Position numbers and translations under genes: made by a program. From contig DVIU01000135.1 of assembly GCA_018711035.1 (NCBI GenBank), positions 1 to 45,318 of the forward strand: DNA of 45,318 nucleotides. The letters run 5' to 3'. The notes beneath the pieces are model-generated. The model was not told the DNA's origin and ran no database searches. It saw only the letters and a program-made list of their open reading frames with translations. Shown one piece after another: positions 5,109 to 45,318 of the stretch. The stretch's first letter is position 1. Each line of letters opens with the position of its first letter. The stretch is from Candidatus Scatousia excrementigallinarum. GTDB lineage: Bacteria > Cyanobacteriota > Vampirovibrionia > Gastranaerophilales > Gastranaerophilaceae.

Positions 5109-6056
5109 TTACCAGTAAGCCATTGTCCCGTGTTCAAAAAGCTCGACTCCTTCCGGAGTTTCTTCTTTCGATGGCCTTGTCCAGTATTCATTGTAATAGT
5201 TTTTACCTAACCAGCTATCCCATCTGGAACCCTTTATTCCAAAAAGGAGCTGAGTTGCCCCCCCCATATGAATGGCTTTTTTACCAAGGCTTTTGACATA
5301 TTGAGCAAGAAACATTCCATACGCACCGGCACCTATTATCGCTATATCAAAATTAATTTTCTTTATATCGGCTTTCATTGCAGCAAGTGCCTCAAACCAG
5401 GTTTTGTATTCTAAATATTTCTTTGCATGTCCTATTCCCTGAACAGGTATACATGTTATTAATTCAAATTCAGGCAAAACATCCGGATTTTTAAATAGTT
5501 TATCACGTTTTTCGTACTGCTTTTTGATAGTTTCATCAAACGGATTAATCACTAGAACCTTTTTACCTTCTAAAGCCTTTGACCACGGATTTTTATAACA
5601 AAACGGGTATGAAAAAGCATTAATATCCACAATATCAGCGTGCTGCAAATACAGGCCGACAACTTTACGTTCGTATCTCTCAGGGCGGCTCGCTAACACA
5701 TCAACATCCTTTAAAATTTCAAATTGTTCACAAGCAAACCTTGTCATATTATAATCATCTATCGGAAAAAATCCTGCCGTATTTGAAAACAAATCTTTGT
5801 GCCATTTATTATATTTAGGATTACAGCCCTTCGCGTTCAACATCATACGCATTGTATCAAGCTCAAGAGTACCAAATCTGCAAATCATTTCAGGTTTATC
5901 CGATAATATATGATTGGCTACTATCTCATTAGCATCTTCTTGAGTATAAACAAATTTATTACCGGCAGTCAAGCTATTTACAACTTTATGCGGATCAATC
6001 AATTCGCGCTTGCCTCTATAAACATCTAAAAGATACTGAACACACTCAAATCTCAT
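5109..6056 (-). CDS. Putative glycosyltransferase (GT-D / DUF1792-like) containing a G8 tract
   Basis: 315-aa ORF. RFGTLELD resembles the RFGDGE motif. Gly-rich IAIIGAGAYGMFLAQYVKSLGKKAIHMGGA resembles the GT-D nucleotide-sugar pocket. Function is low-certainty; the CDS call itself is solid. Confidence 0.6.
   Translation of the reverse strand: MRFECVQYLLDVYRGKRELIDPHKVVNSLTAGNKFVYTQEDANEIVANHILSDKPEMICRFGTLELDTMRMMLNAKGCNPKYNKWHKDLFSNTAGFFPIDDYNMTRFACEQFEILKDVDVLASRPERYERKVVGLYLQHADIVDINAFSYPFCYKNPWSKALEGKKVLVINPFDETIKKQYEKRDKLFKNPDVLPEFELITCIPVQGIGHAKKYLEYKTWFEALAAMKADIKKINFDIAIIGAGAYGMFLAQYVKSLGKKAIHMGGATQLLFGIKGSRWDSWLGKNYYNEYWTRPSKEETPEGVELFEHGTMAYW
5258..5265 (-). repeat. Homopolymeric G8 (C8 on + strand) inside the 315-aa ORF
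   Basis: Reads cat atg ggg ggg gca on the coding strand (H-M-G-G-A, about residues 263-267). One of only two G/C runs of 8 or more found in the window. Confidence 0.95.
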
Positions 6057-18136: not shown

Positions 18137-18631
18137 ATGAGTGTAGAAAATCCGCACAAAATCGATACATCCAAATTGGACGAAATTATCAATTCTTATG
18201 AAGGTAAAAAATCCAATTTGATTGCGATTTTACAAAAAGTTCAGGAAGTTTACCGGTATCTGCCTGAAGAAGCCATGATTTATATCGGAACAAAAATAGA
18301 GGGGCTTTCACCGGCTACAGTATACGGTGTAGCTACTTTTTACGCACAATTTTCACTTGAGCCGAAAGGCAAATTTGAAATTAAAGTATGCGATGGTACA
18401 GCCTGCCACGTTAGAGGTTCAATGCCTGTTCTTAATGCGATTAAAGCCAGACTTGAGCTCAAAGACGGTCAGATGACAACGGATGACGGCCTGTTTTCAC
18501 TTGAAACAGTAAGCTGCCTCGGAGCCTGTGGACTTGCACCTGTTGTAGTTATTAACGGTAAGGTTTATCCTCAAATGACTTCTGACGCAATCAAAATCGT
18601 TTTGGATACCCTTTTAAAAGAGGACAGATAA
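18137..18631 (+). CDS. hydC: [FeFe]-hydrogenase NuoE-like 2Fe-2S subunit (HydC/HndA type)
   Basis: Thioredoxin-like 2Fe-2S motifs CDGTACHVRG and CLGACGLAP. SD GGAG 6 nt upstream. Confidence 0.9.
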   Translation: MSVENPHKIDTSKLDEIINSYEGKKSNLIAILQKVQEVYRYLPEEAMIYIGTKIEGLSPATVYGVATFYAQFSLEPKGKFEIKVCDGTACHVRGSMPVLNAIKARLELKDGQMTTDDGLFSLETVSCLGACGLAPVVVINGKVYPQMTSDAIKIVLDTLLKEDR

Positions 18632-18632
18632 T

Positions 18633-20495
18633 ATGGAAAAAACAGCTTTGAATATTGATATAAAACAAGAGCAATTAAAAGCTCAAGAGGAAATTAAAAA
18701 ACAGGGCCTCAGAGTTCTTGTTTGTGCAGGAACAGGCTGCGTTGCAAACGGCTCTATGAAAGTTATAGAAAAATTTGCAGAACTCGGAGCAGATGTATCG
18801 GTTCTGACAGATTACGATAAAATGACAATCGTTCCTACAGGCTGCCACGGCTTCTGCGAACAGGGCGTACTGGTTATAATTCCGGATAAAGATGTTACCT
18901 ACGTAAAAGTAAAAGTAGAAGATGTTGAAGAAATCTACGAAAGCCATATAAAAAATAATAAGCCCGTAGAAAGACTTCTCTACACTGATCCTAAAACACA
19001 TGAACATGTACATAAAAATGAAGATATTAATTTTTATGCAAAACAAACCAGAACCGCACTCGCAAATTGCGGACACATTAACGCTGAATGTATTGACGAA
19101 GCAATTGCGGTAAGAGGTTATGAGGCACTGGCAAATGTCATTGAGCAAAATAATCCTGATGCAGTTATTGAAGAAATAGAAAAATCAGGATTGCGCGGCA
19201 GAGGCGGAGGAGGCTTCCCTACCGGCAGAAAATGGAGATTTACTGCAGCAAATAAAGGAGGAAAGTCTTACGTTGTATGTAACGGTGACGAAGGCGACCC
19301 GGGTGCATTCATGGATAGAAGTATTATGGAAGGCGACCCGCATAAACTATTAGAAGGTATGGCTATAGCTGCTTTTGCAATAGGCGCAGATGAAGGCTAT
19401 ATTTATGTTCGTGCAGAATATCCGCTTGCTATTAAACGTCTGAGAAAAGCAATTGCAGATGCAGAAGAAAGACACTTCTTAGGTAAAAATATTATGGGAA
19501 GCGACTTCTCATTTACTTTACATATAAAAGAAGGAGCCGGAGCATTTGTTTGCGGTGAAGAAACCGCACTTATCGCTTCAATAGAAGGCGAACGAGGGAT
19601 GCCGCGTCCAAAACCGCCGTTCCCTGCAAATAAAGGATTGTTCGGGCGTCCAACCTTGATTAACAACGTTGAAACTCTTGCTAATGTACCTGTTATCCTT
19701 CTAAAAGGTGCAGACTGGTTTGCCTCATTCGGGACAGAAACTTCAAAAGGTACAAAAACTTTTGCATTAACAGGTGAAGTTAATAACACAGGGTTAATTG
19801 AAGTTCCAATGGGTACAACTTTACGCGAAATCGTATTTGACATAGGCGGCGGAATTAGAGGCGGTAAAAAGTTCAAAGCCGTTCAAATAGGCGGTCCGTC
19901 CGGCGGATGTTTAACTGAAGAACATCTGGATCTTCCTATGGATTATGACAGCCTGATTAAAGCAGGAGCAATGGTCGGTTCAGGTGGTCTTGTTGTTATG
20001 GCCGAAGATACCTGTATCGTTGAAGTTGCAAGGTTCTTTATGAATTTTACCCAGCACGAAAGCTGCGGCAAATGCGTCCCTTGTCGTGAAGGTTCCAAAA
20101 ACATGCTTAAAATTTTAGAAAAAATCGTTGCAGGAAAAGGTGAAATGAAAGACCTTGACTTACTTGAAGAACTAGCTTTGTCTGTTAAAGAAGGTTCCTT
20201 GTGCGGTCTGGGTAAAACAGCTCCAAACCCTGTACTTTCAACTTTAAAATACTTTAGAGACGAATATATAGCTCATATCAAAGACAAAAAATGTCCGGCA
20301 GGCGTTTGTACGGCGATGAAGAAAATCGTTATTCAGCCTGAACTCTGCAAAGGCTGTACAAAATGTGCCAGGACATGTCCTGTCGGAGCTATTGAAGGTA
20401 CAGTTAAACAGCCTCACCACATTAATCAAGAAAAATGTATTAAGTGTGAAGCTTGCTTAACCAACTGCCCGTTCAGAGCTATAGTATTAGAGTAA
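18633..20495 (+). CDS. hydB: [FeFe]-hydrogenase NuoF-like NAD(P)H/FMN subunit (HydB/HndC type)
   Basis: N-terminal 2Fe-2S domain (CAGTGCVANGS...CHGFCEQG). NuoF motifs GLRGRGGGGFPTGRKW, VCNGDEGDPGAFMDR and ESCGKCVPCREG. Two C-terminal ferredoxin motifs, CKGCTKCARTCP and CIKCEACLTNCP. Confidence 0.92.
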   Translation: MEKTALNIDIKQEQLKAQEEIKKQGLRVLVCAGTGCVANGSMKVIEKFAELGADVSVLTDYDKMTIVPTGCHGFCEQGVLVIIPDKDVTYVKVKVEDVEEIYESHIKNNKPVERLLYTDPKTHEHVHKNEDINFYAKQTRTALANCGHINAECIDEAIAVRGYEALANVIEQNNPDAVIEEIEKSGLRGRGGGGFPTGRKWRFTAANKGGKSYVVCNGDEGDPGAFMDRSIMEGDPHKLLEGMAIAAFAIGADEGYIYVRAEYPLAIKRLRKAIADAEERHFLGKNIMGSDFSFTLHIKEGAGAFVCGEETALIASIEGERGMPRPKPPFPANKGLFGRPTLINNVETLANVPVILLKGADWFASFGTETSKGTKTFALTGEVNNTGLIEVPMGTTLREIVFDIGGGIRGGKKFKAVQIGGPSGGCLTEEHLDLPMDYDSLIKAGAMVGSGGLVVMAEDTCIVEVARFFMNFTQHESCGKCVPCREGSKNMLKILEKIVAGKGEMKDLDLLEELALSVKEGSLCGLGKTAPNPVLSTLKYFRDEYIAHIKDKKCPAGVCTAMKKIVIQPELCKGCTKCARTCPVGAIEGTVKQPHHINQEKCIKCEACLTNCPFRAIVLE

Positions 20496-20580
20496 TTATA
20501 CCCAACCCTTAAACCTTTCCCCCTTGTGGGAGATGGAGTCCGTAAGGATGAATGAGGGGATAAACATAAGGAATAAAATT

Positions 20581-22332
20581 ATGACAGATAAAAAAACATT
20601 ATTCATTGACGGTAAAGAAGTTGAATTTACAGACGAGCCAAACCTGCTTGAAGTTATAAGAAAAGCCGGCATGAATGTTCCAACATTCTGCTACCGTCCT
20701 GATTTAACACAGTTCGGCGCATGCAGAATGTGTGTTGTGGAAGTCGAAGGCAGAGGGATTCAATCCTCTTGCACAATGCCCCCTGAAAATGGTTTAAAAA
20801 TTCATTTGAATACAGAAAAAACAAGAAGAATCAGAAAAACTGTTCTTGAACTTCTTCTTGCAAACCACGATAAGGAATGCCTTACCTGCGAAAAATCAGG
20901 GAACTGTGAATTACAACAGTATGCCGAAGAATACGGAATCAGAAAAATCAGATATGCAGAAAAACAACCTGATGAATATCTTCCTATAGATGATAGTTCA
21001 CCGTCTCTGGTAAGAGACCCTAACAAGTGTATACTGTGCGGAGCATGTGTTAGAGCCTGTGCAGAATTTCAAGGACATGCTGTTTTAGGATTTGCAAACC
21101 GCGGGTCAAAAACGGTTGTTCAGCCAATGAATGGCAGACCTCTCGGTCAGGTTGACTGCGTAAACTGCGGACAGTGTGCAGCAGTCTGCCCGACAGGAGC
21201 ATTAACTATAAAATCCGATATTGAAAAAGTCTGGAGTGAAATTACCAATAAAGAAAAAACCGTGGTTGTTCAAATGGCCCCTGCAACACGCGTTGCACTC
21301 GGCGAAATGTTCGGATTAAAACCGGGTGCCAACAGCATAGGCTTAATGAATGCAGCATTAAGAAAAATAGGGTTTGATAAAGTATTTGATACAAACTTTT
21401 CAGCAGACTTAACAATAATGGAAGAAGCAACCGAATTTTTGGAAAGATTAAAATCAGGCCAAAATCTCCCGCTATTCACTTCATGCTGTCCTGCCTGGGT
21501 AAAATACCTTGAAGACCAGCACCCTGATATGTTACACCATTTATCAAGCTGCAAATCTCCAATGTCTATGCTTTCTCCGGTTCTGGTTGACTTAGTACCG
21601 CAGAATCTTGGCATTGCAAGAGAAAACTTTGTTGTTGTTGCGATTATGCCTTGTACGGCAAAAAAATACGAATGCAAGCGTCCTGAACTCGCACGAAACG
21701 GAAGACCTGATACAGATTATGTATTAACAACGCAGGAACTCGGCAGAATGATAAAAGAAGCCGGTATAAACTTTAATGCACTGGAACCCGAAGACCATGA
21801 TTCGCCTTTCGGTGAATATTCAGGTGCAGGAACAATCTTCGGAGCATCAGGCGGGGTTGCGGAAGCTGCTGTACGAACAGCTTACGAATTTGCAACAGGT
21901 GAACAGTTAAATGATGTTGACTTTAAACCGTTAAGAGGAACTGAGAATCGTTCAAGAGATGTCGAACTTGATTTGAAAGGAACTAAACTTGTAGTAAGAG
22001 TAGTTTCAACATTAAAAGAAGCTGAAAAATCAATTCAGGAAATCAAAGCCGGTAATGCTCCTTTCCAAATGCTTGAGGTTATGGCCTGCCCTGGCGGCTG
22101 TATCAACGGCGGAGGACAGCCAAGAAGCTGCGATGACAGCAAAATCAAAGGAGAACGCGCAGAAGGCCTGTATAAAGAAGATATTGAGCTTCCTTTACGC
22201 AAATCACACATGAATCCTTCTATTCAGAAGCTTTATCAGGAATATCTTGAACATCCTAATTCCCATAAAGCGCATGAAATCCTGCATACCGTTTATAAAG
22301 ACAAATTTGCAGGGTCTTATAAAGACATATAA
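20581..22332 (+). CDS. hydA: [FeFe]-hydrogenase catalytic subunit
   Basis: N-terminal 2Fe-2S (CYRPDLTQFGACRMCVVEV) and FeS motifs CILCGACVRAC and CVNCGQCAAVCP. H-cluster signatures TSCCPAW, MPCTAKKYE and EVMACPGGCINGGGQP. ATG 20581 (AAGGA upstream) is preferred over the TTG at 20524. Confidence 0.93.
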   Translation: MTDKKTLFIDGKEVEFTDEPNLLEVIRKAGMNVPTFCYRPDLTQFGACRMCVVEVEGRGIQSSCTMPPENGLKIHLNTEKTRRIRKTVLELLLANHDKECLTCEKSGNCELQQYAEEYGIRKIRYAEKQPDEYLPIDDSSPSLVRDPNKCILCGACVRACAEFQGHAVLGFANRGSKTVVQPMNGRPLGQVDCVNCGQCAAVCPTGALTIKSDIEKVWSEITNKEKTVVVQMAPATRVALGEMFGLKPGANSIGLMNAALRKIGFDKVFDTNFSADLTIMEEATEFLERLKSGQNLPLFTSCCPAWVKYLEDQHPDMLHHLSSCKSPMSMLSPVLVDLVPQNLGIARENFVVVAIMPCTAKKYECKRPELARNGRPDTDYVLTTQELGRMIKEAGINFNALEPEDHDSPFGEYSGAGTIFGASGGVAEAAVRTAYEFATGEQLNDVDFKPLRGTENRSRDVELDLKGTKLVVRVVSTLKEAEKSIQEIKAGNAPFQMLEVMACPGGCINGGGQPRSCDDSKIKGERAEGLYKEDIELPLRKSHMNPSIQKLYQEYLEHPNSHKAHEILHTVYKDKFAGSYKDI

Positions 22333-27231: not shown

Positions 27232-27308
27232 AGGCATAAAACACCGTCCGCCTGTTGAACAAGCGTATATTAAACACTTTTTAAAGACCACACACTCTTA
27301 ATTGGCGA

Positions 27309-27340
27309 TAAAAAATTTGAAACAAATCAACACTTCAAAT
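27309..27340 (-). terminator. Weak AT-rich hairpin + T-run downstream of the 31-codon mini-gene
   Basis: On the minus strand: atttgaa / 12-nt loop / ttcaaat followed by tttttt. It starts 20 nt after the TAA at 27360-27362. Confidence 0.35.
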
Positions 27341-27359
27341 CGTCTGTATTTTTAAGGGA

Positions 27360-27455
27360 TTATCCTTCTGTTGTTAATTCTTCCCAGATGCTTGGAACTA
27401 CAATTAACGCAGTATAAACGATAAATCCGAATAGAATTAAGTTGATAGCTTCCAT
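27360..27455 (-). CDS. Unannotated small ORF, 31 aa, single-TM hydrophobic peptide with an acidic tail
   Basis: ATG 27455 is preceded by AGGAGA (27463-27468) with a 7-nt spacer. Translation MEAINLILFGFIVYTALIVVPSIWEELTTEG*. It lies alone in a 339-nt intergenic gap, below the 60-aa cutoff of the ORF track. Confidence 0.55.
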   Translation of the reverse strand: MEAINLILFGFIVYTALIVVPSIWEELTTEG

Positions 27456-27570
27456 AAGAACTTCTCCTATAAGTCTACATGTAATATTATGCCCATGTTT
27501 GCTATCAATTTAACACTTTTTAACAAAATATTTAAAAAATTTTTCATATAATAAGAAGAAAGAGGAAAAT

Positions 27571-27885
27571 ATGGAAAAGAAACTAAAAGCATTATTTGAC
27601 AATTTATGTTGTTCACAGTGTAAAACAGGCTTTGATGAAGATTCATTTATAATAAAAAGAGAAGAACCCGGTTTAACTGTTACCCATTTAGTGTGTAAAA
27701 ACTGCGGTAAAAGTTTCGGAGTAGCATTCTTAGGTTTCTCCGGAATAGAAGTAAAGGACGAATCGCAGCTTGCCCTTGAAGTTCAGGAAGGCCCGGAACC
27801 AATCAGCTACGATGACGTGATTGACGCACACAGGTTTATCCGTGAGCTCGACGAACACTGGACTAAACATTTACCGAAATCTTAA
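27571..27885 (+). CDS. Hypothetical zinc-ribbon protein, 104 aa
   Basis: Two CxxC pairs (CSQCKTG ... CKNCGKSF) and an acidic C-terminal half. SD AGAGGAAAA. The stop overlaps the stop of convergent nupC. Confidence 0.6.
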   Translation: MEKKLKALFDNLCCSQCKTGFDEDSFIIKREEPGLTVTHLVCKNCGKSFGVAFLGFSGIEVKDESQLALEVQEGPEPISYDDVIDAHRFIRELDEHWTKHLPKS

Positions 27886-29162: not shown

Positions 29163-29394
29163 TTTTATCCTTTTCGATAATCTGATTTTTACTGATAACG
29201 AGGCTGAAATCAACTCTCATGCCATATTAATTTTACTTTAAAGTAAAATAAAAAACTTTAATTATTGAAAAAAATTTACTTAATATTTCTTAATATTTAA
29301 CCGGTTAACTGTTGAAAAAAAATATGTCAGCATTTTACTATAAAGGCAGAAGATAATTCTTTCTGCAGCATGGTTAATAGAAAAGGGGTATTAA

Positions 29395-32300
29395 ATGCGT
29401 ATTACTTCGGTCATACCGCAGGTTTATGCGGGGAATCTAAAAAGACAACAAACAACACAATTAACACACCAAAATCCTAACTTAATTAATGAAAAGCCGA
29501 TAAATTCGTTGAATTTTGTAGCACCGGCTTATATTGAGCATCTAGCTCAAAGGGGGGGGGTAGGATTCGTAAATTTAACCTTCACCGGTGCAGATAAAAA
29601 TATTAACCAGTTTGCTTCTTATTCACCCGAAAACAAACGTTATGGACTAAACTCATATAACTACGGCGGTCTCGGAGTTGTTGCTCAGGAAGCCCCGAAT
29701 AACTGGCGTATCAAAGAAAAAGCCGACGTCAGAGACTTTTCACCTTATCATTCATACGGAACGACCAAAGGCGGAGTCATGGTCGCAGAAGTTACAAGAG
29801 ATGAAAAGGGCAAAATAACAGAACGACACCTGCCGCAAAATAAATTCCATCAGGCTGCGCAAAACGAATCTCTAGAAGAGGTTGCCAAAAGGCTGAACTT
29901 AAAACCTGAAAATTTGGAATATGTTATTCAAATTGAACCTGATACAAAAGGTAAATCAGAGTTTGTTGTATTGAAAGATGCAAAAGCTTCAGGCTCTTTC
30001 AAACGTGCTTCAGATAATGCCGTTGATGAATTAAAAGAAATTAATTATAGATTCTTTGGAACAGATGAAATCAGCGACCCTGTTTTTATTGCACAAAAAA
30101 AGCTTGAAGCTAAAACAAGAGACGAAATTATTGAACCTCGCCTCGCTAAAATTAAAGAACAGATTGAAGCAACTTATCACTATGAACAAAAACTGAAAGA
30201 ATTAAATGAAGCTGATAATCAAAGTTTCAATAAAGACCCTTATTCTTTTGAACCGAACCCTAAGATTACAGAGATTGAAGAAGAATATAACAAAAAAATA
30301 GCCGAAGGCATAAAATCTATTGAAAAAGAAGTAGATGATGAATTCTATAAAACACTTGAAACTCCGGAATATAAGGATAAACTTGCAAAAATAACCGAAA
30401 CGGCGGCAGAAGCCGTACCGGAGCGAAATTATGTATATTTTGTACATACTGAAGATCTGGCAAGATTTGAAAATGCATACGGTATTGGAGCAAAAGGTAC
30501 AGGAGCTTACGGTGCATACGGAACCTATGGAACCTACGGTACCTATGGAACTTACGGAACTGAGGGAAGCGAAGACGGCATAAAACACGTAAGTACAAAC
30601 GTATTCTATGCAGATAATAACCGTGCATTTGTAGAAGGTCTGCCTAAATTAAACACCGCAGAACATGGCAATTTTAACCCTGCCAACCTGTGGCTGCATG
30701 ACCGTCCGGCATTTATGATTATGCACCATATAGCAAATAAATCTGCCGCAGGAGATGAATATTATAACGGCGGAGTAAAAGCGCACAGCTCATTCCATAA
30801 TCCGGGCAGAGACTATCAGGGCTGGATGAACAACCCGTTTGAATTCTTCCGCCTTGTTGCAAACGAACAGGACGTTGAAGAAATAAAAAATCACCCTCAG
30901 CTTAAAGAAATAAAATATATAGAGAAAAACTGGCATAAATTCGGCCCTAAAGATGGTGAAGAATTAACACCTGAGGCAAAATTCGTAAAAGAAATTTTTG
31001 ATCCTTATTTCAAAAACTTTATGGACGATTTTAATACATATAATATTTCCATGACACCGGTTGCAGGTGTAAAAACAAACGGTAAAAATTTTACTGCCGG
31101 TACCGTATCAATGAACTACGGTAAAGAAATGAAAAATCCGGATACTCCTGATATTGCACTCGGTATGACCAAAAAACTTTCAGAAATCGAAACTCACGAT
31201 ATCACAAACGGAAGTACTCCTGCAAACCTTCAACTCGATAATCCAAAAGCTAACTTCCACAGAAAAGGGCATCCGAATCTGCTTACAAAATTAAAACGCG
31301 GATTTACAACATATAATTACGAATATGAATTAGATAAAGACGGTAAAATTGTTAAAGATAATATTGACGAAGTATTGAAAGCAAAAGAAAGCAATACCAA
31401 ATGGTTATTAAATTTGATTGACCATGCTTATCAGGCAGGCGGACAAAGCGGAGTTACAAAGGTCTTTTGCAGTGACGCGCAGATAAGCAACGGCGCAACA
31501 GTTATCGGACACTTATCCGGCTTTAAAAAGGGCGATAATTTATTTATGGGCTGGGGGCGTCCGGATCCGCAGAAAAATTATCCGGCCTCAATAGGAGCAA
31601 TTAAAGAATTTATTGAATTTTTAAAAGATAAAAATATTCCCGATGAATTAAAAACCCGTACAAAAGGTATTTTTGGCGCAGGAGTTTGGGACGCAAGTGC
31701 AGAAGAATATAAATGGATAAAAGACTTAATTGAAGTACAGCTTCCTAAAATTGATAACGGTAAATATGCCGGAAATATTATGTACGTTAATAACTTCTTC
31801 CCTAATAGGCTTGTAGGGTGCGCAACATGGACGTTGTTCTCATCCAGATTTGAACCGTGCGGTATAACGCCGCTTGAGTCTTTTGCGTCAGCCACACCTT
31901 GTATTTCAATAAATACTGGCGGGGCACCTGATTTTATTAATAAAATGAGAGGCCTGCTTACTAAACATCCGTATCTGTTGAAACGTGAAAGACTTGAAGA
32001 AATATTAGGTAAAAAACTTGATTTCAACGGAGATGCAGCACATGATGCAAAAGTTCTTGATGGTGCACGCTGGGAAAATGCTACATTTGAACTTAAAGAT
32101 TGTATCATAATGGCAATGCAGTCTAATGATGAAGAATTCAAAAAAGCAATTCATGACCAGCTCAGTGAAGAATTAAAGAATCAGGAAGTAATCCCATACA
32201 AACAAATGGCTCAAAACGCAGGATTACAGCGTGATAAAATGGATTGGCACCAGAACGCCGATTATAATAACGGAAAAACAGCAAATGAACGTTACATGAA

Positions 32301-32577
32301 TGAAGTTTTTGAAAGAAATAAAGGCATAGAAGCCAGAAACAAAAATCCGATGAAGCGTTTTGTAGGAAAATTCGGAACTGCAACTGAAAAAATTGTAATT
32401 CAGGCAGAAGAAGCTGCCCAATCCGCTTCAACATCAAAAGTCGGAAAAATTGTAGCATTCAGTATTCTAGGTGCAGCAGCCATAGCTTCAGGCGGATACT
32501 ACTTCTTCCAGAAACGCCAGAAAAAGCTCGGTTTTAACAAACCTGTTGAAGAAAAATCATTTACAAAAATCGGATAA
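29395..32577 (+). CDS. Giant GT5 (glycogen/starch-synthase-like) glycosyltransferase homologue with large insertions and a C-terminal membrane anchor
   Basis: 1060-aa ORF. GT5/GT-B motifs in order: YGGLGVV, LWLHDRPAF, SFHNPGRDYQGW, ITNGSTPANL, GWGRPDPQKNYP, SSRFEPCGITPLESFASATPCISINTGGAPDF. A K/E-rich insertion of ~250 aa lies between the first two motifs. C-terminal TM IVAFSILGAAAIASGGYYFF is followed by a basic tail. Confidence 0.7.
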   Translation: MRITSVIPQVYAGNLKRQQTTQLTHQNPNLINEKPINSLNFVAPAYIEHLAQRGGVGFVNLTFTGADKNINQFASYSPENKRYGLNSYNYGGLGVVAQEAPNNWRIKEKADVRDFSPYHSYGTTKGGVMVAEVTRDEKGKITERHLPQNKFHQAAQNESLEEVAKRLNLKPENLEYVIQIEPDTKGKSEFVVLKDAKASGSFKRASDNAVDELKEINYRFFGTDEISDPVFIAQKKLEAKTRDEIIEPRLAKIKEQIEATYHYEQKLKELNEADNQSFNKDPYSFEPNPKITEIEEEYNKKIAEGIKSIEKEVDDEFYKTLETPEYKDKLAKITETAAEAVPERNYVYFVHTEDLARFENAYGIGAKGTGAYGAYGTYGTYGTYGTYGTEGSEDGIKHVSTNVFYADNNRAFVEGLPKLNTAEHGNFNPANLWLHDRPAFMIMHHIANKSAAGDEYYNGGVKAHSSFHNPGRDYQGWMNNPFEFFRLVANEQDVEEIKNHPQLKEIKYIEKNWHKFGPKDGEELTPEAKFVKEIFDPYFKNFMDDFNTYNISMTPVAGVKTNGKNFTAGTVSMNYGKEMKNPDTPDIALGMTKKLSEIETHDITNGSTPANLQLDNPKANFHRKGHPNLLTKLKRGFTTYNYEYELDKDGKIVKDNIDEVLKAKESNTKWLLNLIDHAYQAGGQSGVTKVFCSDAQISNGATVIGHLSGFKKGDNLFMGWGRPDPQKNYPASIGAIKEFIEFLKDKNIPDELKTRTKGIFGAGVWDASAEEYKWIKDLIEVQLPKIDNGKYAGNIMYVNNFFPNRLVGCATWTLFSSRFEPCGITPLESFASATPCISINTGGAPDFINKMRGLLTKHPYLLKRERLEEILGKKLDFNGDAAHDAKVLDGARWENATFELKDCIIMAMQSNDEEFKKAIHDQLSEELKNQEVIPYKQMAQNAGLQRDKMDWHQNADYNNGKTANERYMNEVFERNKGIEARNKNPMKRFVGKFGTATEKIVIQAEEAAQSASTSKVGKIVAFSILGAAAIASGGYYFFQKRQKKLGFNKPVEEKSFTKIG
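29552..29560 (+). repeat. Homopolymeric G9 inside the 1060-aa ORF (codons 53-56)
   Basis: Reads caa agg ggg ggg gta (Q-R-G-G-V). It is the longest G/C homopolymer in the window. Confidence 0.95.
30502..30561 (+). repeat. 9-nt tandem repeat, ~6.7 copies, encoding (G-A/T-Y)n
   Basis: ggagcttac ggtgcatac ggaacctat ggaacctac ggtacctat ggaacttac ggaact encodes GAYGAYGTYGTYGTYGTYGT. Confidence 0.9.
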
Positions 32578-32626: not shown

Positions 32627-32742
32627 ATTCTTACTGGGACTAGCCAAAAGGATAGCACCGGGGTGGGGCACAAAGCTCTGATTTTTAAATCTTAACAACC
32701 CCCAATATTAAAAAATTAAATAGCATTGCAAATAAAAAATTT

Positions 32743-32815
32743 GCGCTTGTAGCTCAGCAGGTAGAGCACTCCCCTTTTAAGGGATAGGTCGCGCGTTCGA
32801 ATCGCGCCAAGCGCA
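32743..32815 (+). tRNA. tRNA-Lys (anticodon UUU), CCA not encoded
   Basis: Manual cloverleaf. Acceptor gcgcttg/caagcgc, D arm gctc-agcaggta-gagc, anticodon loop cuUUUaa, T arm gcgcg-ttcgaat-cgcgc, discriminator A. Confidence 0.9.
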
Positions 32816-32849
32816 AATTTTTATGTTATTATTTATTTAGTGAGGAAAA

Positions 32850-33791
32850 ATGTTTATTGAATTTGTAAAAGCTATAAATACATTTAATTCATTTCTTTTA
32901 GGATGGTCAAATCAGTTTATTGAAAAGTTGCCTGTTGCAGACTTTATTAAAGATGCGCTGATTGATAGTATTAATCTTATACCTTTTTTATTCGTAATAT
33001 TTTTCTTTATAGAAATATTTGAGATTTATTTTTCTAAAAAAATAAAACATCTCTCCAATCATTCAAAAATAAGCGGGCCTTTTCTGGGTGCATTAACAGC
33101 AATTGTACCTCAATGCGGTTTTTCTGTTATTGCGAGCACTCTTTATATCAATAAATTAATAACACGGGGAACACTTATTGCTGTGTATATTTCAACTTCA
33201 GATGAAGCCATTCCGGTTTTACTTGCACATCCGGAAATGATTAAATCTATTTTACCTATACTTGGAATAAAATTTTTACTCGCTGTTTTAACAGGCTATA
33301 CAGTTGATTTCTTGTTCAAACCATCAACAGATGAAAAAGAAGAAGAACTTGAATTTGAAGAACAAGGCTGCTGTAAACATGAAATTACAAATGACAGATT
33401 TAAAAAACGAGTACTGATTCTGCACCCGTTAAAACATACTGCTAATATTTTTATATTTATTTTTTTAGTCACACTTATATTAAACTTCATCCTGTTAAAA
33501 ACGCATGGGCATATTGAACAGGTATTTATGTATAATTCTCCGTTGCAGCCGGTTATATCCGCAATTATAGGGTTGATACCTAATTGTGCAATTTCTGTAC
33601 TGATTACAATGCTTTATATACAGCATGCAATCAGTTTTGGAGCCGTTATTGCAGGTCTTTCATCAAGTGCAGGTCTTGGACTGATTATACTGATGAGGAG
33701 AAATGACTCCGTAAAAGATACGCTTAAAATTTTAGCAATTCTTTTATCTGTTAGCATGCTATCAGGTTTAATCCTACAGATATTATTTTAA
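32850..33791 (+). CDS. Polytopic membrane protein, possibly the ArsP_2 / putative 10-TM heavy-metal exporter family
   Basis: 313-aa hydrophobic ORF with duplicated motif IVPQCGFSVIASTLY / LIPNCAISVLITMLY. A central acidic loop carries EEQGCCKHE. Family assignment is from memory and low-certainty. Confidence 0.5.
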   Translation: MFIEFVKAINTFNSFLLGWSNQFIEKLPVADFIKDALIDSINLIPFLFVIFFFIEIFEIYFSKKIKHLSNHSKISGPFLGALTAIVPQCGFSVIASTLYINKLITRGTLIAVYISTSDEAIPVLLAHPEMIKSILPILGIKFLLAVLTGYTVDFLFKPSTDEKEEELEFEEQGCCKHEITNDRFKKRVLILHPLKHTANIFIFIFLVTLILNFILLKTHGHIEQVFMYNSPLQPVISAIIGLIPNCAISVLITMLYIQHAISFGAVIAGLSSSAGLGLIILMRRNDSVKDTLKILAILLSVSMLSGLILQILF

Positions 33792-40712: not shown

Positions 40713-41111
40713 ATGATTAGAAGTGTAAGTTTTGGAAGTCTTTATTCAAATTTTCTGCAACAGAATAATAATCAACAGAAACAAGACCTGATTAATAAAA
40801 ATTACAGTGAAATCTATGCTCACGAACAGGCCCATAAGTCTGCCGGAGGGGCTTTGGCAGGCTCTATAGTAATAGAGAAGAATGCTGACGGGATTCCCGT
40901 AGGAGGACATGTGGATATTAAAATGCCGACATTAAATCCTGACAATCCGCAAAAAACTATTGATGAAGCAAATATAGTTATCCGGTCTGCAATGGCACCG
41001 GGGGATCCTTCTCCGCAAGATTATAAAGTTGCAGCCAAAGCAAGAGAGATTAAAGCTCAGGCTCAAAGTATGCTTACAACCCGCGGACGCAAGCTTAATG
41101 TAATGGGTTAA
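40713..41111 (+). CDS. SprA-related family protein (putative small metalloprotease, HEQAH motif)
   Basis: YAHEQAHKSAGGALAGSIVIEKNADGIPVGGHVDIKMP...DPQKTIDEANIVIRSAMAPGDPSPQDYKVAAKAREIKAQA matches the SprA-related (PF12118-type) pattern I recall. ATG 40713 with GAGG upstream is preferred, because the tracked GTG at 40701 would lie at or before the predicted transcription start. Confidence 0.65.
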   Translation: MIRSVSFGSLYSNFLQQNNNQQKQDLINKNYSEIYAHEQAHKSAGGALAGSIVIEKNADGIPVGGHVDIKMPTLNPDNPQKTIDEANIVIRSAMAPGDPSPQDYKVAAKAREIKAQAQSMLTTRGRKLNVMG

Positions 41112-43281
41112 TTACCGGCTTATTCTTATTTTCATAAAATCGGAATTTCATTACAGTTGTATTCCCTTTTTCCGTGTAGTCAACGGAAAACTCATTATAA
41201 AATTTAAAACCATGCTTTTCAAAGAAGTAATTAGTAAATCGGCATGCTGATTTGTAAGGATAAAATTTTGAAGAATTAGTTATAGGCATATCGTTTATAT
41301 CAATATACGAACAGACAATACCATCCGTTATATAATCATTTCCGGAATTACGGCTTTCGTATTTTTGAACATTTGTTGATAACTGCATATCATTAACGAG
41401 CATTAGCAGATTATATTTATCAAGATTTATATTATCAATATTTTCCGCTGTATCAAAATCAATATTGTATCCGTCAAATTCCATCATCTTGATAATAAGG
41501 AGAGTGTCTGAGGCATTAGAAAAATATAAAATTTTATTCCTTTTATCAATCATTCTGATTTTATCCCTTATACCGCAAGCAATATTAAATACGGGATAAT
41601 TTTTCATAAGATAAGGTTTAGCTTTTATATCCTTAAAAAATCCTGAACATGTTGCAATTTCTCTGACTTGAGAAACTGTGGCACCTTCTCTAAAATATGC
41701 AAAAATCCTGGTTGCAGCTCTTGCCCACAAATTTGTAGATACAAAAATAAGATAGAAAACTGCAAAGAAAACTATAATAAATTTTAAAGGATTATTCTTT
41801 CTGCAATAGGAATGAGCCAGCACCGGTGCCGAAACAACACAAAAAGAAGTAAGAAACCTTATACTGTATGTCATAAATTGAAGCTGGAATGACATTATAA
41901 AAATAGTCACAAGTAATATCACAGCAAAAGATAATATAAACCAGTCTTTCTTTTTTCTACTGAAAAACGGCTTTATAAGCGAAAGAAAAAGACATGGCAG
42001 ATAAACCAGAAATCCTAGAATTCCCAGCCCCATAAGAGGTTCCAGCAATGTATTATTTGAGATTGAAGAATCGGAAGAATTTAACCCGTCGTGAGAAACA
42101 AACAAACCTAAAGATGAAATAATAGTGTCGCGTAAATTGAGAATATGCACGCCTAATGTTTGATTCCAAGTAAATCCTGTAAAATCAAAAAACATAAAAA
42201 TATACTTTATAAAATCCGCAGGAACAGATTTTAACCCGTTATGGTTACTGTGTGCTGCAAGCAAAGAAGGTGACCCCGCTATATTTCCGTAATCGAGAAA
42301 GTTCAGAATATAATTATATGAAGCAAAGAAAATAAAACATATAACACCCCATAATAAAAATGACAGAAAAGGTTTATAAAAATACTTTTTCTTATAATAA
42401 ATACTCATTGCGGCCATCCATATTCCTACTCCGGGCACAAGGATAAGAGCAGGAGTTTTTGTCCCTATTGCAAGAGCATACGATAATGCAGATAATATTA
42501 CAGAGGAGCGTTTTTCTGATTTAAGATAGTTCCAGTAAAGATAGATACTCGAAAGAACAAGTCCTGCAATAATTATGTCTGTTTCTGTGCCTGAAATTTG
42601 GACAATTACAGAAGCAAAGGATGATGTAATAAATATTACCCATAATTTTCTGCGCAAAGAAAATCCCATATTTGATAAAATACCGTAAAGTGAAGTTAGT
42701 GAAAGAATAAATCCTGAAAATGAAAAAATACCGAACCATACACATTTTCTGACAAAAAGCAGTATCCATGCATACAAGATTTCGGAATTTACCGGTAAAT
42801 CCAGACATCTGGCTTCTGCGATACTAAAGTGATTTAAAATTTTGTTTGATATCCAGAATAAACTTCTAAGAACATGATAACCCTCGGCATCAGGATTGAC
42901 TACAGGCATAAAGCTTATTAACCACAAAGAAACCCCGCACATAAAAATTGTACAGATTGCGAGAACAAGAAGATACTTATCTTTCAAAAGAACCGTACAA
43001 AATGATTTAAACGAATTTTTTAATTTCAAATGAAACGCCGGTCTTCCTGCCCTGTACCAGAAAACTAAGGATAACGCGAAAATAAGAATATTCAGGATAA
43101 GGACTCCTGAACGTGATATTGCAGAAAATAAGGAAAGCACTTCAAAGGATAGCACTATATTGGCAAAAGCTGTAATAAGGAAATAAATAATTACCTCAAT
43201 CAATTTTTTATTTTCTAAAACAGAAACAAAGAAATATGATGATAAAAAAACTAAAATCAACGAAATGAAAAATAAAAGCAT
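41095..43281 (-). CDS. Polytopic membrane protein, GT-C-fold (ArnT/PMT-like) glycosyltransferase candidate with a 4-Cys C-terminal domain; paralog 1
   Basis: 728 aa with about 12 predicted TM spans. First-loop acidic/aromatic motif PVVNPDAEGYHVLRSLFW. The C-terminal ~230-aa soluble domain has conserved Cys residues. Clearly homologous along its full length to the next gene. Confidence 0.55.
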   Translation of the reverse strand: MLLFFISLILVFLSSYFFVSVLENKKLIEVIIYFLITAFANIVLSFEVLSLFSAISRSGVLILNILIFALSLVFWYRAGRPAFHLKLKNSFKSFCTVLLKDKYLLVLAICTIFMCGVSLWLISFMPVVNPDAEGYHVLRSLFWISNKILNHFSIAEARCLDLPVNSEILYAWILLFVRKCVWFGIFSFSGFILSLTSLYGILSNMGFSLRRKLWVIFITSSFASVIVQISGTETDIIIAGLVLSSIYLYWNYLKSEKRSSVILSALSYALAIGTKTPALILVPGVGIWMAAMSIYYKKKYFYKPFLSFLLWGVICFIFFASYNYILNFLDYGNIAGSPSLLAAHSNHNGLKSVPADFIKYIFMFFDFTGFTWNQTLGVHILNLRDTIISSLGLFVSHDGLNSSDSSISNNTLLEPLMGLGILGFLVYLPCLFLSLIKPFFSRKKKDWFILSFAVILLVTIFIMSFQLQFMTYSIRFLTSFCVVSAPVLAHSYCRKNNPLKFIIVFFAVFYLIFVSTNLWARAATRIFAYFREGATVSQVREIATCSGFFKDIKAKPYLMKNYPVFNIACGIRDKIRMIDKRNKILYFSNASDTLLIIKMMEFDGYNIDFDTAENIDNINLDKYNLLMLVNDMQLSTNVQKYESRNSGNDYITDGIVCSYIDINDMPITNSSKFYPYKSACRFTNYFFEKHGFKFYNEFSVDYTEKGNTTVMKFRFYENKNKPVINPLH

Positions 43282-43294
43282 ATTAATCTCCTTA

Positions 43295-45318
43295 TTATAT
43301 TTCCTGCTTATTCATATTCTTGTATACGTAATATTTATAAACATTATTTATTCCATTAAAGGTTTCTGAAAATTCTAAAGTGTCAAACAACACAAACTTC
43401 CTTTTTGCAAAAAAGCCGTCTTCAAACCTGCAAATAGAAACACAAGGTTTCTGTCTCGAAGGATTTAAAACAAAATTACCAAAAGCCTCATTGTATACGC
43501 AGAATACACCATCTGCGCGGTATACACCGTCTTTTGCCTGATTAATATTGTGGAAAAGATTTGAAACTTGCCTGTTTTCCATAGTTATAACATAACTATA
43601 CCTGCTTAAATCTATATATGAGCCATTTTCAATTAAATCAACGTCAATTTTATAACCGTCAAATACTAATTCTTTTATAAAAAATAGTGCGTCACCCTCA
43701 TGAGAAAAGTATAAAAACTTATCTTTGTTCGGAAACTTCTTAATATAATCCCTAATCGTGCAATAGACATTTGGAAAGGAATATTCGTTTTTAAAGGGAC
43801 CGCCTAAACATGATACATTATCACGGATTTTCTCAATTGAATTACCCTGCCCCAAAGCCTGCAAAACAGGCATAACATTTTTGCCGGTTATATTAAATGG
43901 AATATATAAAAACGAAAACATCACAATTAATGCCGTAATTAATTTATATAAAGACAAATTCTTATTATAAGAATGGTAAATTACCGGCGCGGCAACTAAA
44001 GCAAACGTCACTATAAATCGAATATTAAAAGACATATACACAAGAGAACATGACATCAGCAAAAAAGCTGCCAGAAAAATTATACTGAAAGAATTTAATA
44101 TAAATTCTTTTTTATTTTGTACAAAGAATATTCTAAATAAAGAGAATATTAAACACGGTAAAAATACTAAAATACCGGACAGCCCAAATCCGCTTCTGTG
44201 AGGACTAATTATCCCAAAACCCTTGTCGCTTGCGTACCGTCCGGTAAGCACCGGGCTTGAAAATAATTTAAATAAATATTTCTTGATTTCAAAAATAAAA
44301 TCCGAACAAACAAAAATTTTATCGTATTCCGGAAAATTAAACATACTTAATGCATAATTAATTAAATTAAATAGAAATCCCCTAATACCTGCCTGATTTT
44401 GATGTGAATAATTGAGCGAAGATACCGAGAAAAAATTTCCGTAATTTATAAAGTTTAAAATATAGTTATAAGAAGAAAATATCAGAAAGTTTAAAATCAA
44501 AAATAAACTAAATAGAGCAAAATCTTTAAATACTTTTTTCCCCTCATATCGAAAACCTGCTGTAATAAACCATAACATTACAGCAGGCAGCAAGAACAAA
44601 GCAGAAGATTTAACCCCGATTGCCACAGCCATAGACAGTGCAGACATATAAACAGCGGCAAAAGAGTGTTTCTGCATATTATCGATAAGCAAATATATTG
44701 AAGCTAATACCAGAGCCGCAATCATAATATTTGTTTCATTCGAAGAAAGATAAGCAATCACAGCAGTAAATGATGAAACCGTAAAAATTACCCACAATCC
44801 GGCTCTTAAAGAAACCGCTATTCGTGATAAAATACCTAAAAGAGATACTATATACACTATGAAAGCAGCAATGGAAAAGAAGCTTAGAAAAACATCTCTC
44901 TTTAAAAATAGAAGAACCCATGTATATAAAATTTCAGAATTTATCGGAAAACACAGCATCCTTGCATCAGAAACATTAAAATGATTGAAATTTCCGTTAT
45001 CTATCCAGAATAAGCACCTCACAACATGATAAAAATACGAAGCAGCATCATTTGCAGGCATAACGTAAGATAGAAAAACAGCACTAATAAGCATTATTAC
45101 AAACCCCAGAGAGAGAATCAAAAGTATTCTATCCTGTAATAAAGCATTTTTTAAACGTGAAAAAATTTTACGAAATTCAGGTTTTAAAATAGGACGCCCT
45201 TTTATAATCCACAGAATCAAGATAGCTGAAAATAACAGGATATTCCCCGCAAGAACTCCTTTAACCGAGATTTTGGAAAATAATGAAAGGATTTCAAAGG
45301 TTAATATTATATTGGCAA
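43295..45318 (-). CDS. Paralog 2 of the GT-C-like membrane protein; N-terminus runs off the window edge
   Basis: The frame stays open upstream of the tracked TTG at 45220 up to nt 45318. The extra residues (ANIILTFEILSLFSKISVKGVLAGNILLFSAILILW) align with residues ~40-75 of paralog 1 (ANIVLSFEVLSLFSAISRSGVLILNILIFALSLVFW). A 13-nt gap separates it from paralog 1. Confidence 0.55.
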   Translation of the reverse strand, partial: ANIILTFEILSLFSKISVKGVLAGNILLFSAILILWIIKGRPILKPEFRKIFSRLKNALLQDRILLILSLGFVIMLISAVFLSYVMPANDAASYFYHVVRCLFWIDNGNFNHFNVSDARMLCFPINSEILYTWVLLFLKRDVFLSFFSIAAFIVYIVSLLGILSRIAVSLRAGLWVIFTVSSFTAVIAYLSSNETNIMIAALVLASIYLLIDNMQKHSFAAVYMSALSMAVAIGVKSSALFLLPAVMLWFITAGFRYEGKKVFKDFALFSLFLILNFLIFSSYNYILNFINYGNFFSVSSLNYSHQNQAGIRGFLFNLINYALSMFNFPEYDKIFVCSDFIFEIKKYLFKLFSSPVLTGRYASDKGFGIISPHRSGFGLSGILVFLPCLIFSLFRIFFVQNKKEFILNSFSIIFLAAFLLMSCSLVYMSFNIRFIVTFALVAAPVIYHSYNKNLSLYKLITALIVMFSFLYIPFNITGKNVMPVLQALGQGNSIEKIRDNVSCLGGPFKNEYSFPNVYCTIRDYIKKFPNKDKFLYFSHEGDALFFIKELVFDGYKIDVDLIENGSYIDLSRYSYVITMENRQVSNLFHNINQAKDGVYRADGVFCVYNEAFGNFVLNPSRQKPCVSICRFEDGFFAKRKFVLFDTLEFSETFNGINNVYKYYVYKNMNKQEI

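Follow-up and report, generated by a model that had tools for sequence, protein, structure and literature searches.

What does a glycogen synthase-like protein do when it is far larger than a glycogen synthase and ends in a hydrophobic helix? The question is raised by a contig of Candidatus Scatousia excrementigallinarum (DVIU01000135.1, GenBank assembly GCA_018711035.1; its whole 45,318 nucleotides are referred to here as the window), which carries between positions 29395 and 32577 a gene for a 1060-amino-acid (aa) protein related to glycosyltransferase family 5 (GT5). The species belongs to the Gastranaerophilales, widespread uncultured gut relatives of cyanobacteria whose carbon storage has been inferred from gene lists only. 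The original prediction, made from the sequence alone, assigned the protein to the synthesis of a surface or envelope glycan under phase-variable control. From its observed fold, residue conservation, anchor, taxonomic distribution and paralogy, we infer instead, as to donor, acceptor, product, topology and role, a membrane-tethered GT5 paralogue for the initiation or positioning of alpha-glucan synthesis, and we give this reading about an even chance.

The open reading frame (ORF) is real, as had been predicted: it begins with ATG, the N-terminal MRITSVIP is kept in the aligned homologues, and a ribosome-binding site, GAAAAGGGGT at 29380-29389, lies 6 nt before the start codon. In the Pfam search, only PF00534 (Glycos_transf_1) was matched, at aa 768-856 (E = 1.6e-6). 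PDB searches with phmmer and hmmsearch, and hhalign against the single E. coli GlgA sequence, detect only the ~60-aa E-P-C-G...T-G-G stretch, over which hhalign gives a 94% probability (F-E-P-C-G...T-G-G), and the nucleotide-sugar motif at aa 819-843 is the only part detected by sequence profiles. The homology of the N-terminal domain (N-domain) was therefore taken from a structure model and a bridging alignment. AlphaFold2, supplied with 21 sequences of the family, gave a model with a predicted local distance difference test (pLDDT) score of 80.4 and a predicted template modeling (pTM) score of 0.79. In a Foldseek search of the PDB with this model, the top 11 matches were all GT5 enzymes (E = 4.5e-13 to 2.4e-10), followed by GT35 phosphorylases. 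The best match was the granule-bound starch synthase (GBSS) of Cyanobacterium sp. CLg1 (6gnf; E = 4.5e-13, template modeling score 0.69 on the target), and other top matches were E. coli glycogen synthase (GS), rice GBSS and AtSS4. The GT-B fold of the original prediction is recovered in this way, and it is very probable that the protein has a GT5-type fold.

A profile search of 1.84 billion representative sequences retrieved 87 proteins at E <= 1e-30, together with a fringe of proteins of 850-1250 aa at ~25% identity. One of the latter (P0251), which NCBI names glycogen synthase, aligns over 650 aa with 27% identity (E = 3e-33). PF08323 (Glyco_transf_5, the starch synthase catalytic domain) is matched by 3 of 21 family members (best E = 5.2e-8) and by 8 of 9 relatives at ~25% identity (E up to 0.01), 7 of which score above the cut-off. 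The 1060-aa protein is a descendant of GT5 glycogen/starch synthases and not a GlgA orthologue, since it fails the curated models, lacks the lysine of the KXGGL motif and lies outside a glg locus.

Residue equivalences were obtained from a MAFFT alignment bridged to E. coli GlgA via the ~25%-identity relatives. All of the GT5 landmarks listed in the original prediction are collinear with those of GlgA, except that the "K" of its K/GGLG motif is an Asn here. E79, G91-G92, D436, H468-N469 and Y474-Q475-G476 align with GlgA E9, G17-G18, D137, H161-N162 and Y165-Q166-G167, and N605, R722, K727, E820 and T841-G842-G843 align with N246, R300, K305, E377 and TGG. Toward the end of the catalytic core, MDW (aa 949-951) corresponds to GlgA DFSW. 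Conservation was counted in 134 full-length members, down to ~30% overall identity. Most landmark residues are invariant in this set, including G91/G92 of the GGLG loop, R722, K727, E820, G823 and G842; H435, D436 and T841 are nearly so, with the HD motif found in 128 to 131 members. Glu820, Arg722, Lys727, His468, Asn605 and TGG are kept in 132 to 134 of the 134 members. Agreement of this kind, along with the GT5 matches of the model, goes far past what chance would give.

This conservation bears on whether the protein is an enzyme at all. A non-catalytic glucan-binding scaffold, which would tether glycogen or partner proteins to the membrane, would agree with the loss of the KXGGL lysine in most members, with the large non-catalytic additions (helical arm, repeat loop and anchor) and with the absence of the catalytic Glu from some ~25%-identity relatives. 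However, the catalytic residues are kept despite identities as low as ~30%, as would be expected if purifying selection acted on an active enzyme, and we regard a pseudo-enzyme as extremely unlikely. The GT5-like protein is probably catalytically competent but very divergent. The distant relatives in question are P0164, P0167, P0174, P0190 and P0194, in which F-E-P-C-G is changed to F-A-P-C-E, with Ala at the E377-equivalent position and a Glu three residues further on; they may be inactive or rewired paralogues.

The acceptor side of the active site has been remodeled. Tyr362, invariant in the family, aligns with Tyr95 of E. coli GS in a "Y-G ... D-Y-x-D-N" segment, in which Y-A-D-N of the window protein equals Y-T-D-N of GlgA. 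Through this shared motif, Tyr362 would also correspond to Tyr101 of CLg1 GBSS. In that enzyme, the loop at residues 92-108 is disordered without acceptor and becomes ordered on binding, with Tyr101 stacking on an acceptor glucose (PMC6086201). The stretch from Tyr362 to Tyr405 comprises 42 residues in the window protein and 7 in GlgA; across the 134 members, its equivalent ranges from 10 to 52 residues with up to 8 Tyr, and 88 members have at least 3 Tyr. The (G-x-Y)n repeat noticed in the original prediction is indeed present in this loop. It starts eight residues after the invariant stacking Tyr362 and contributes six further Tyr, and Tandem Repeats Finder resolves its DNA (30517-30560) into ~5 imperfect tandem copies of the 9-bp unit TACGGAACC. 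Repeat copy number varies between close relatives. Since members with a short loop have a single A-Y-G-G-G unit, the run looks like a repeated duplication of the stacking Tyr-Gly unit, by which the mobile acceptor-stacking loop known from GT5 enzymes would have been enlarged. A match of aa 365-392 to NCBIfam HxsA4 (His-Xaa-Ser repeat, E = 0.1) was discarded as a low-complexity artefact.

The same loop could be imagined as a built-in primer, in which one or more loop Tyr would be self-glucosylated and the chain then elongated in the manner of glycogenin, leaving the glucan covalently attached to the membrane-anchored protein. Bacterial GlgA has been reported to self-glucosylate, and the repeat is flexible, close to the stacking Tyr and quick to change in copy number, all of which is compatible with self-priming. 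We nevertheless hold self-priming to be very unlikely.

The C-terminal helix and basic tail of the original prediction were both confirmed. The helix (I1019-F1038) is uncharged, with a mean Kyte-Doolittle hydropathy of 1.62. A hydrophobic segment is found at this end in 119 of the 134 members, and in the ~25%-identity relatives too; the length of the tail that follows it varies among members between 9 and 96 aa. The C-terminal extension is ~85 aa long (aa 976-1060) and not ~200 aa as first thought, because aa 848-975 still belong to the GT5 fold: they make up its normal C-terminal portion plus insertions, and they include the last helix, which returns to the N-domain. No signal-peptide-like hydrophobic stretch was detected at the N-terminus in a hydropathy scan, in keeping with the finding that a comparable segment occurs elsewhere in the sequence in only 2 of the 134 members. 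Because a signal peptide is missing and GT-B enzymes of this kind use nucleotide sugars, the C-terminal anchor would place the catalytic domain on the cytoplasmic face; a single-helix tail anchor with a cytoplasmic catalytic body is thus predicted.

In a genome scan, the family (850-1140 aa) was found at 74 loci, one per assembly, nearly all of them with titles naming Gastranaerophilales or Melainabacteria, or unclassified or probably mislabeled metagenome-assembled genomes (MAGs). Its sequences indicate an orthologous family that is specific to Gastranaerophilales, which are non-photosynthetic Melainabacteria. Eight loci (L013, L021, L033, L040, L047, L068, L069 and L070) are labeled Clostridium sp. 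CAG:967/768, Brachyspira sp. CAG:484 or "uncultured Muribaculaceae", which are probably MAG mislabels. None of the family members has a name in the searched protein collection. Literature searches on membrane-bound or tail-anchored bacterial glycogen synthases, and on the glycogen enzymes of Gastranaerophilales, turned up no description of this family, nor of any bacterial GT5 that is itself membrane anchored or whose acceptor loop holds a Tyr-Gly repeat.

When 1.44 Mb of Gastranaerophilales loci were searched with tblastn for glgA/C/B/P/X, the only matches were this family and one extra GT5. The latter, a soluble and more canonical protein of 815-884 aa, is encoded 1.6-9 kb away in three loci: L043 (11660-14164, minus strand), L054 (21922-22452) and L088 (10001-12475). 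It has K/Q-x-GGLG, N-D-W-H, HNLGYQG and FEPCG motifs, matches PF08323 and PF00534 and scores 166 bits with TIGR02095. With only 16 relatives, the second GT5 seems restricted to one subclade. Since these three related genomes hold a more canonical soluble GT5, the tail-anchored protein is read as a specialized paralogue.

Taken together, a body of ~950 aa with a GT-B fold would lie in the cytoplasm, where the single C-terminal helix would tether it to the inner side of the cytoplasmic membrane. Glucose would pass from a nucleoside diphosphate glucose to an alpha-glucan that Tyr362, Tyr474 and the flexible Tyr/Gly loop would keep in place. An active ADP-glucose pyrophosphorylase (GlgC) is reported for Melainabacteria, along with glgA and glgB genes (bioRxiv 10.1101/2021.06.18.448987), and because of this active GlgC, ADP-glucose would be the likeliest donor. 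Gastranaerophilus genomes have also been predicted to store glycogen (PMC5877343; PMC4040986). The acceptor site would be a remodeled one, in which the stacking Tyr362 is followed by a flexible loop repeating the Tyr-Gly unit up to eight times and a Trp has given way to an invariant Arg. The K/E-rich helical arm, present in one subclade only, would mediate oligomerization or partner binding. Such a protein would be a specialized paralogue for beginning alpha-glucan (glycogen) synthesis at the membrane, or for placing it there, and not the bulk glycogen synthase.

Several observations weigh against the initiation or positioning of alpha-glucan synthesis. The window protein has no match to PF08323 at E <= 1, and TIGR02095 covers only aa 785-851 (E = 1.3e-7) with 30.7 bits against a cut-off of 328.45. 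Lys15 of the E. coli GlgA KXGGL motif contributes to ADP-glucose binding, and the equivalent position in the 134 members is Asn in 87, Ser in 13, Lys in 13 and Ala in 7. The acceptor-site pair Trp138/His139 of GlgA is Arg/Pro in the window protein, so the acceptor may differ from a plain alpha-1,4-glucan. The charges flanking the C-terminal helix are +2 before and net +5 after it, a pattern that does not fit the positive-inside rule for a tail anchor with its N-terminal side in and its C-terminus out, so that the topology is uncertain. No glg gene is a conserved neighbor among 79 loci, and the window itself holds no canonical glgA. The main uncertainties are the lost lysine, the acceptor-site Arg, which might point to a different, possibly anionic acceptor, and the charge pattern of the anchor.

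The substitution at Trp138 suggests a further explanation, namely a membrane-associated glucosyltransferase that does not polymerize and acts on a non-glucan, probably anionic acceptor such as a lipid, a lipid-linked intermediate or a sugar phosphate. Arg437 takes the place of the acceptor-contacting Trp in 134 of 134 members, whereas canonical GT5 enzymes and the long ~25%-identity relatives retain that Trp (HDWH in the latter); His139 has been exchanged too, the family keeps its membrane tether, and conserved basic residues flank the anchor. Arg commonly binds neutral sugars as well, however, and we know of no characterized GT5 activity in CAZy other than alpha-glucan synthase. In addition, the sugar-stacking Tyr362 and Tyr474 (equivalent to Tyr95 and Tyr165) and Asp436 are invariant, which argues for a carbohydrate acceptor, and the Tyr/Gly loop looks like an expanded glucan-stacking element. 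A non-glucan acceptor is therefore considered unlikely.

The original prediction of a surface or envelope glycan enzyme, switched on and off by slippage in the G9 tract near the start of the gene, has to be judged on the anchor, the gene context and the tract itself. The protein is membrane anchored, and its gene is unlinked to glg genes: as predicted, glgC, glgB and glgP are missing nearby, since no glg gene occurs in the 45-kb window or among the conserved neighbors in 79 loci. However, the protein has no signal peptide, and because GT-B enzymes use cytoplasmic nucleotide sugars, extracellular action would need a separate exporter. Neither an exporter, a flippase nor a polysaccharide gene is among the conserved neighbors in the 79 loci. 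The gene is conserved throughout the order and was found once in each of 74 assemblies, whereas phase-variable surface glycans usually depend on variable accessory genes. We consider the surface-glycan assignment improbable on these grounds.

The tract deserves separate treatment. The window has just two G/C runs of at least 6 nt, G9 itself and a G8 tract (5258-5265), and both lie on the coding strand of glycosyltransferase-type genes. Both encode Gly-Gly with GGG, the rarest Gly codon, and GGGGGG is used for only 2 of 57 Gly-Gly pairs. A slip of -1 or +1 at G9 would lead to a stop at codon 56 or 68, with no in-frame restart before Met129. L006, a species with 81% aa identity, has the tract at identical codons, but it is absent from five of seven close relatives (L001, L002, L003, L005 and L007) and falls within a subclade-specific stretch of the disordered leader. 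An assembly artefact was considered and rejected because six independent assemblies agree: six independent contigs from different samples all have G9, in frame. The identical 1060-aa protein was found on at least 20 contigs from several samples, the exact-protein look-up returned only ON forms, and an ORF starting at Met129 (the OFF type) is not on record. No tract-length variants were found in a pattern scan of JGI metagenome contigs. All of these checks looked at assembled contigs, which makes them a weak test of length polymorphism. A real, in-frame outlier tract shared with L006 speaks for the phase-variable design, and the uniform G9 of the six contigs and its absence from the five relatives speak against it. 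Phase variation via G9 is no more than a suggestive lead and gives no basis for inferring a surface glycan. The G8 tract (ATG GGG GGG GCA, ...IHMGGATQ...) is in an ORF at 5109-6056 (minus strand, 315 aa) with a weak match to the GT-D-fold family PF22882 (E = 3.5e-6).

The remaining features of the protein and its gene are collected in Table 1. The insertions between motifs that the original prediction described were seen in both model and alignment, including a further one relative to GlgA at about aa 857-948. The K/E-rich helical insertion exists but spans ~110-120 aa (226-345) instead of ~250. Its helices lie at aa 229-261, 263-280, 289-308, 310-321 and 324-335, with 33% K+E. Together with the beta-rich part that precedes it, the helical arm sits within a ~285-aa expansion (aa 120-405); it is confined to one subclade and absent from the basal subfamilies P0090-P0099. 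Segment 118-346, modeled alone (pLDDT 88), had no PDB match at E <= 0.001, and a structural search with the beta-rich elaboration alone (aa 120-225) also gave no match. A carbohydrate-binding module or other known domain was therefore rejected for segment 118-346, the model being confident but without a PDB match. In the N-terminal leader, pLDDT is below 50 at residues 1-45, 47-51 and 55-65.

Table 1. Features of the GT5-like gene and its product in the window (residue numbers refer to the 1060-aa protein)
Feature	Residues	Position	Strand	Basis
Upstream region: promoter-like TTGAAA-18-TACTAT (29312-29341) plus ribosome-binding site		29312..29389	+	Consensus scan, pattern match only
Complete gene, tail-anchored GT5-like glycosyltransferase	1060 aa	29395..32577	+	ATG start; 99 end-to-end homologues
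N-terminal leader: MRITSVIP conserved, rest variable, predicted disordered	1-65	29395..29589	+	pLDDT, alignment, hydropathy scan
G9 homopolymer, encodes R-G-G-V (AGG GGG GGG GTA), candidate slipped-strand switch		29552..29560	+	Sequence
NYGGLG, glycine loop, = GlgA KTGGL; Lys15 replaced by Asn89	89-94	29659..29676	+	Bridge alignment
Beta-rich elaboration of N-terminal Rossmann domain, with long beta-hairpin	120-225	29752..30069	+	DSSP of models, pLDDT ~90
K/E-rich helical arm between two strands of the N-domain beta-meander	226-345	30070..30429	+	AlphaFold2 model
Expanded acceptor loop, invariant Tyr362 to Tyr405 of Y-A-D-N (405-408)	362-405	30478..30609	+	Alignment; disordered 365-397 in model
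(G-x-Y)n repeat GAYGAYGTYGTYGTYGTYGT	370-389	30502..30561	+	Sequence
H435-D436-R437 = GlgA H136-D137-W138	435-437	30697..30705	+	Bridge alignment
HNPGRDYQG = GlgA HNLAYQG, GT5 signature	468-476	30796..30822	+	H, N, Y, Q, G invariant, 134/134
Helical N-domain insertion, ~40 aa longer than GlgA	477-548	30823..31038	+	Model, alignment
TNGST = GlgA LNGVD (Asn246)	604-608	31204..31218	+	N605 invariant
Inter-domain insertion, ~60 aa longer than GlgA	610-715	31222..31539	+	Model, alignment
WGRPDPQK = GlgA SRLTSQK; Arg722/Lys727 = phosphate-binding Arg300/Lys305	720-727	31552..31575	+	Both invariant
FEPCGITPLESFASATPCISINTGG, nucleotide-sugar motif FEPCG...TGG, Glu820 = Glu377	819-843	31849..31923	+	PF00534, TIGR02095, PDB phmmer, hhalign
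DW...ANERYMNEVF = GlgA DFSW...YRELY, last GT-B helix, core end	950-972	32242..32310	+	W951 in 133/134
Linker between core and anchor: conserved R-N-x-x-P-[ML]-K-R-[FL]-V-G plus predicted helix	976-1018	32320..32448	+	Alignment, model
Hydrophobic helix IVAFSILGAAAIASGGYYFF, putative transmembrane tail anchor	1019-1038	32449..32508	+	Hydropathy
Basic tail QKRQKKLGFNKPVEEKSFTKIG, begins QKRQKK	1039-1060	32509..32574	+	Sequence
Terminator-like hairpin, then T-run, upstream of tRNA-Lys (32742-32816)		32664..32680	+	Pattern match only

The window is a chromosomal segment of 36% G+C carrying housekeeping genes, among them those for glutamine synthetase, RNase E/G, LpxK, a FeFe-hydrogenase cluster, BioD/BioA, NupC, Pth and ClpC. 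The GT5-like gene is flanked by a divergent nupC and tRNA-Lys and appears monocistronic. In the 79 loci, its recurrent neighbors are divergent nupC (56/79), a small zinc-ribbon ORF, bioA, bioD and genes for a ShlB-type protein and a DUF3137-like membrane protein. Gene context was rejected as a functional clue, the nupC, bioA/bioD, ShlB-type and zinc-ribbon neighbors being ordinary synteny. The zinc-ribbon-like ORF (~104-110 aa, CxxC...CxxC, no Pfam family) lies between bioA and nupC in 44 of the 79 loci, for example at about 27300-27880 in the window, at 8163-8471 in L001 and at 8197-8508 in L075. In the subclade of the window, tRNA-Lys(UUU) and an ArsP_2-type permease follow the gene (32742-33791); in 41 other loci, a DUF3137-like membrane protein is encoded downstream on the opposite strand (convergent), a local rearrangement beside the tRNA gene. 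The FeFe-hydrogenase cluster (18137-22332) consists of three genes, for 2Fe-2S thioredoxin-like, NuoF-like and Fe-hydrogenase large subunits, and is consistent with the fermentative lifestyle described for Gastranaerophilales. Pfam gave no match at E <= 1e-5 for three large minus-strand ORFs, at 41095-43281 (728 aa), 43295-45220 (641 aa) and 3412-4587 (391 aa).

The family is unnamed in the searched databases and nearly invisible to curated profiles, yet it keeps the GT5 active site largely complete. If active, the protein would be the first described bacterial enzyme of the glycogen/starch-synthase type with its own membrane anchor, and it would illustrate the rebuilding of a GT5 acceptor loop by a Tyr-Gly repeat together with the exchange of Trp for Arg. 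Such rebuilding would bear on the way in which glucan synthesis is started and placed, for bacterial glycogen as for plant starch granules. Self-priming, if true, would unite initiation and elongation in one protein and give a membrane-bound, self-primed glycogen particle, which is undescribed in bacteria. For annotation, the labels "glycosyltransferase family 1" and "glycogen synthase" on members of this family should be read as fold-level statements only.

Among known systems, Campylobacter, Haemophilus and Neisseria have glycosyltransferase genes that are phase-variable through poly-G tracts; these are variable accessory genes of lipooligosaccharide or capsule loci, with documented length polymorphism. 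Like them, the window gene belongs to an AT-rich genome, codes for a glycosyltransferase and has an in-frame G9 close to its 5' end, but it is a conserved core gene, and no polymorphism was observed across the six contigs. The likeness to glycogenin (GT8) is one of analogy only, in that both have a flexible Tyr-bearing segment near a glucosyltransferase active site; glycogenin has a GT-A fold and belongs to another family.

The window protein has the GT-B fold in common with the glycogen synthases of E. coli (GlgA, 2qzs) and A. tumefaciens (1rzu), along with collinear motifs and identical residues for catalysis, phosphate binding and sugar stacking. It differs from GlgA in size (1060 versus 477 aa), with ~10-15% identity in structural alignments, and in the replacement of Lys15 by Asn and of Trp138/His139 by Arg/Pro; it adds five insertions, a leader and the C-terminal anchor, is not part of a glg operon and falls below the NCBIfam glgA cut-offs. 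The closest analogies are with GBSS, for its additional acceptor loops, and with plant starch synthase 4, for its helical regions and its part in granule initiation. CLg1 GBSS is not only the best structural match but also has a mobile loop carrying an acceptor-stacking Tyr, as the window protein does. Extra loops of CLg1 GBSS round the acceptor are thought to give processivity (PMC6086201). The corresponding loop of the window protein is 42 residues long with a G-x-Y repeat; GBSS is soluble or granule bound and has neither a membrane anchor nor a helical arm.

Plant starch synthase 4 (SS4; 6gne, E = 7.5e-11 in the structural search) likewise combines a GT5 catalytic domain with long helical regions of the coiled-coil type. 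SS4 takes part in granule initiation and has a membrane location that it owes to partner proteins and not to a transmembrane helix of its own. Its helical region is N-terminal, whereas the arm of the window protein is inside the N-domain, and orthology is not implied. A further comparison is with the long soluble GT5 paralogues of Melainabacteria, such as P0251 ("glycogen synthase [Cyanobacteria bacterium SIG30]") and the 834-aa protein of L043. These keep HDWH and often the Lys and match PF08323 and TIGR02095 much better, and those of the L043 type are without the hydrophobic tail. They nevertheless come from the same lineage as the window protein and share with it several insertions and the C-terminal D-W-x-x-N...S-A-x-E-R-Y motif.

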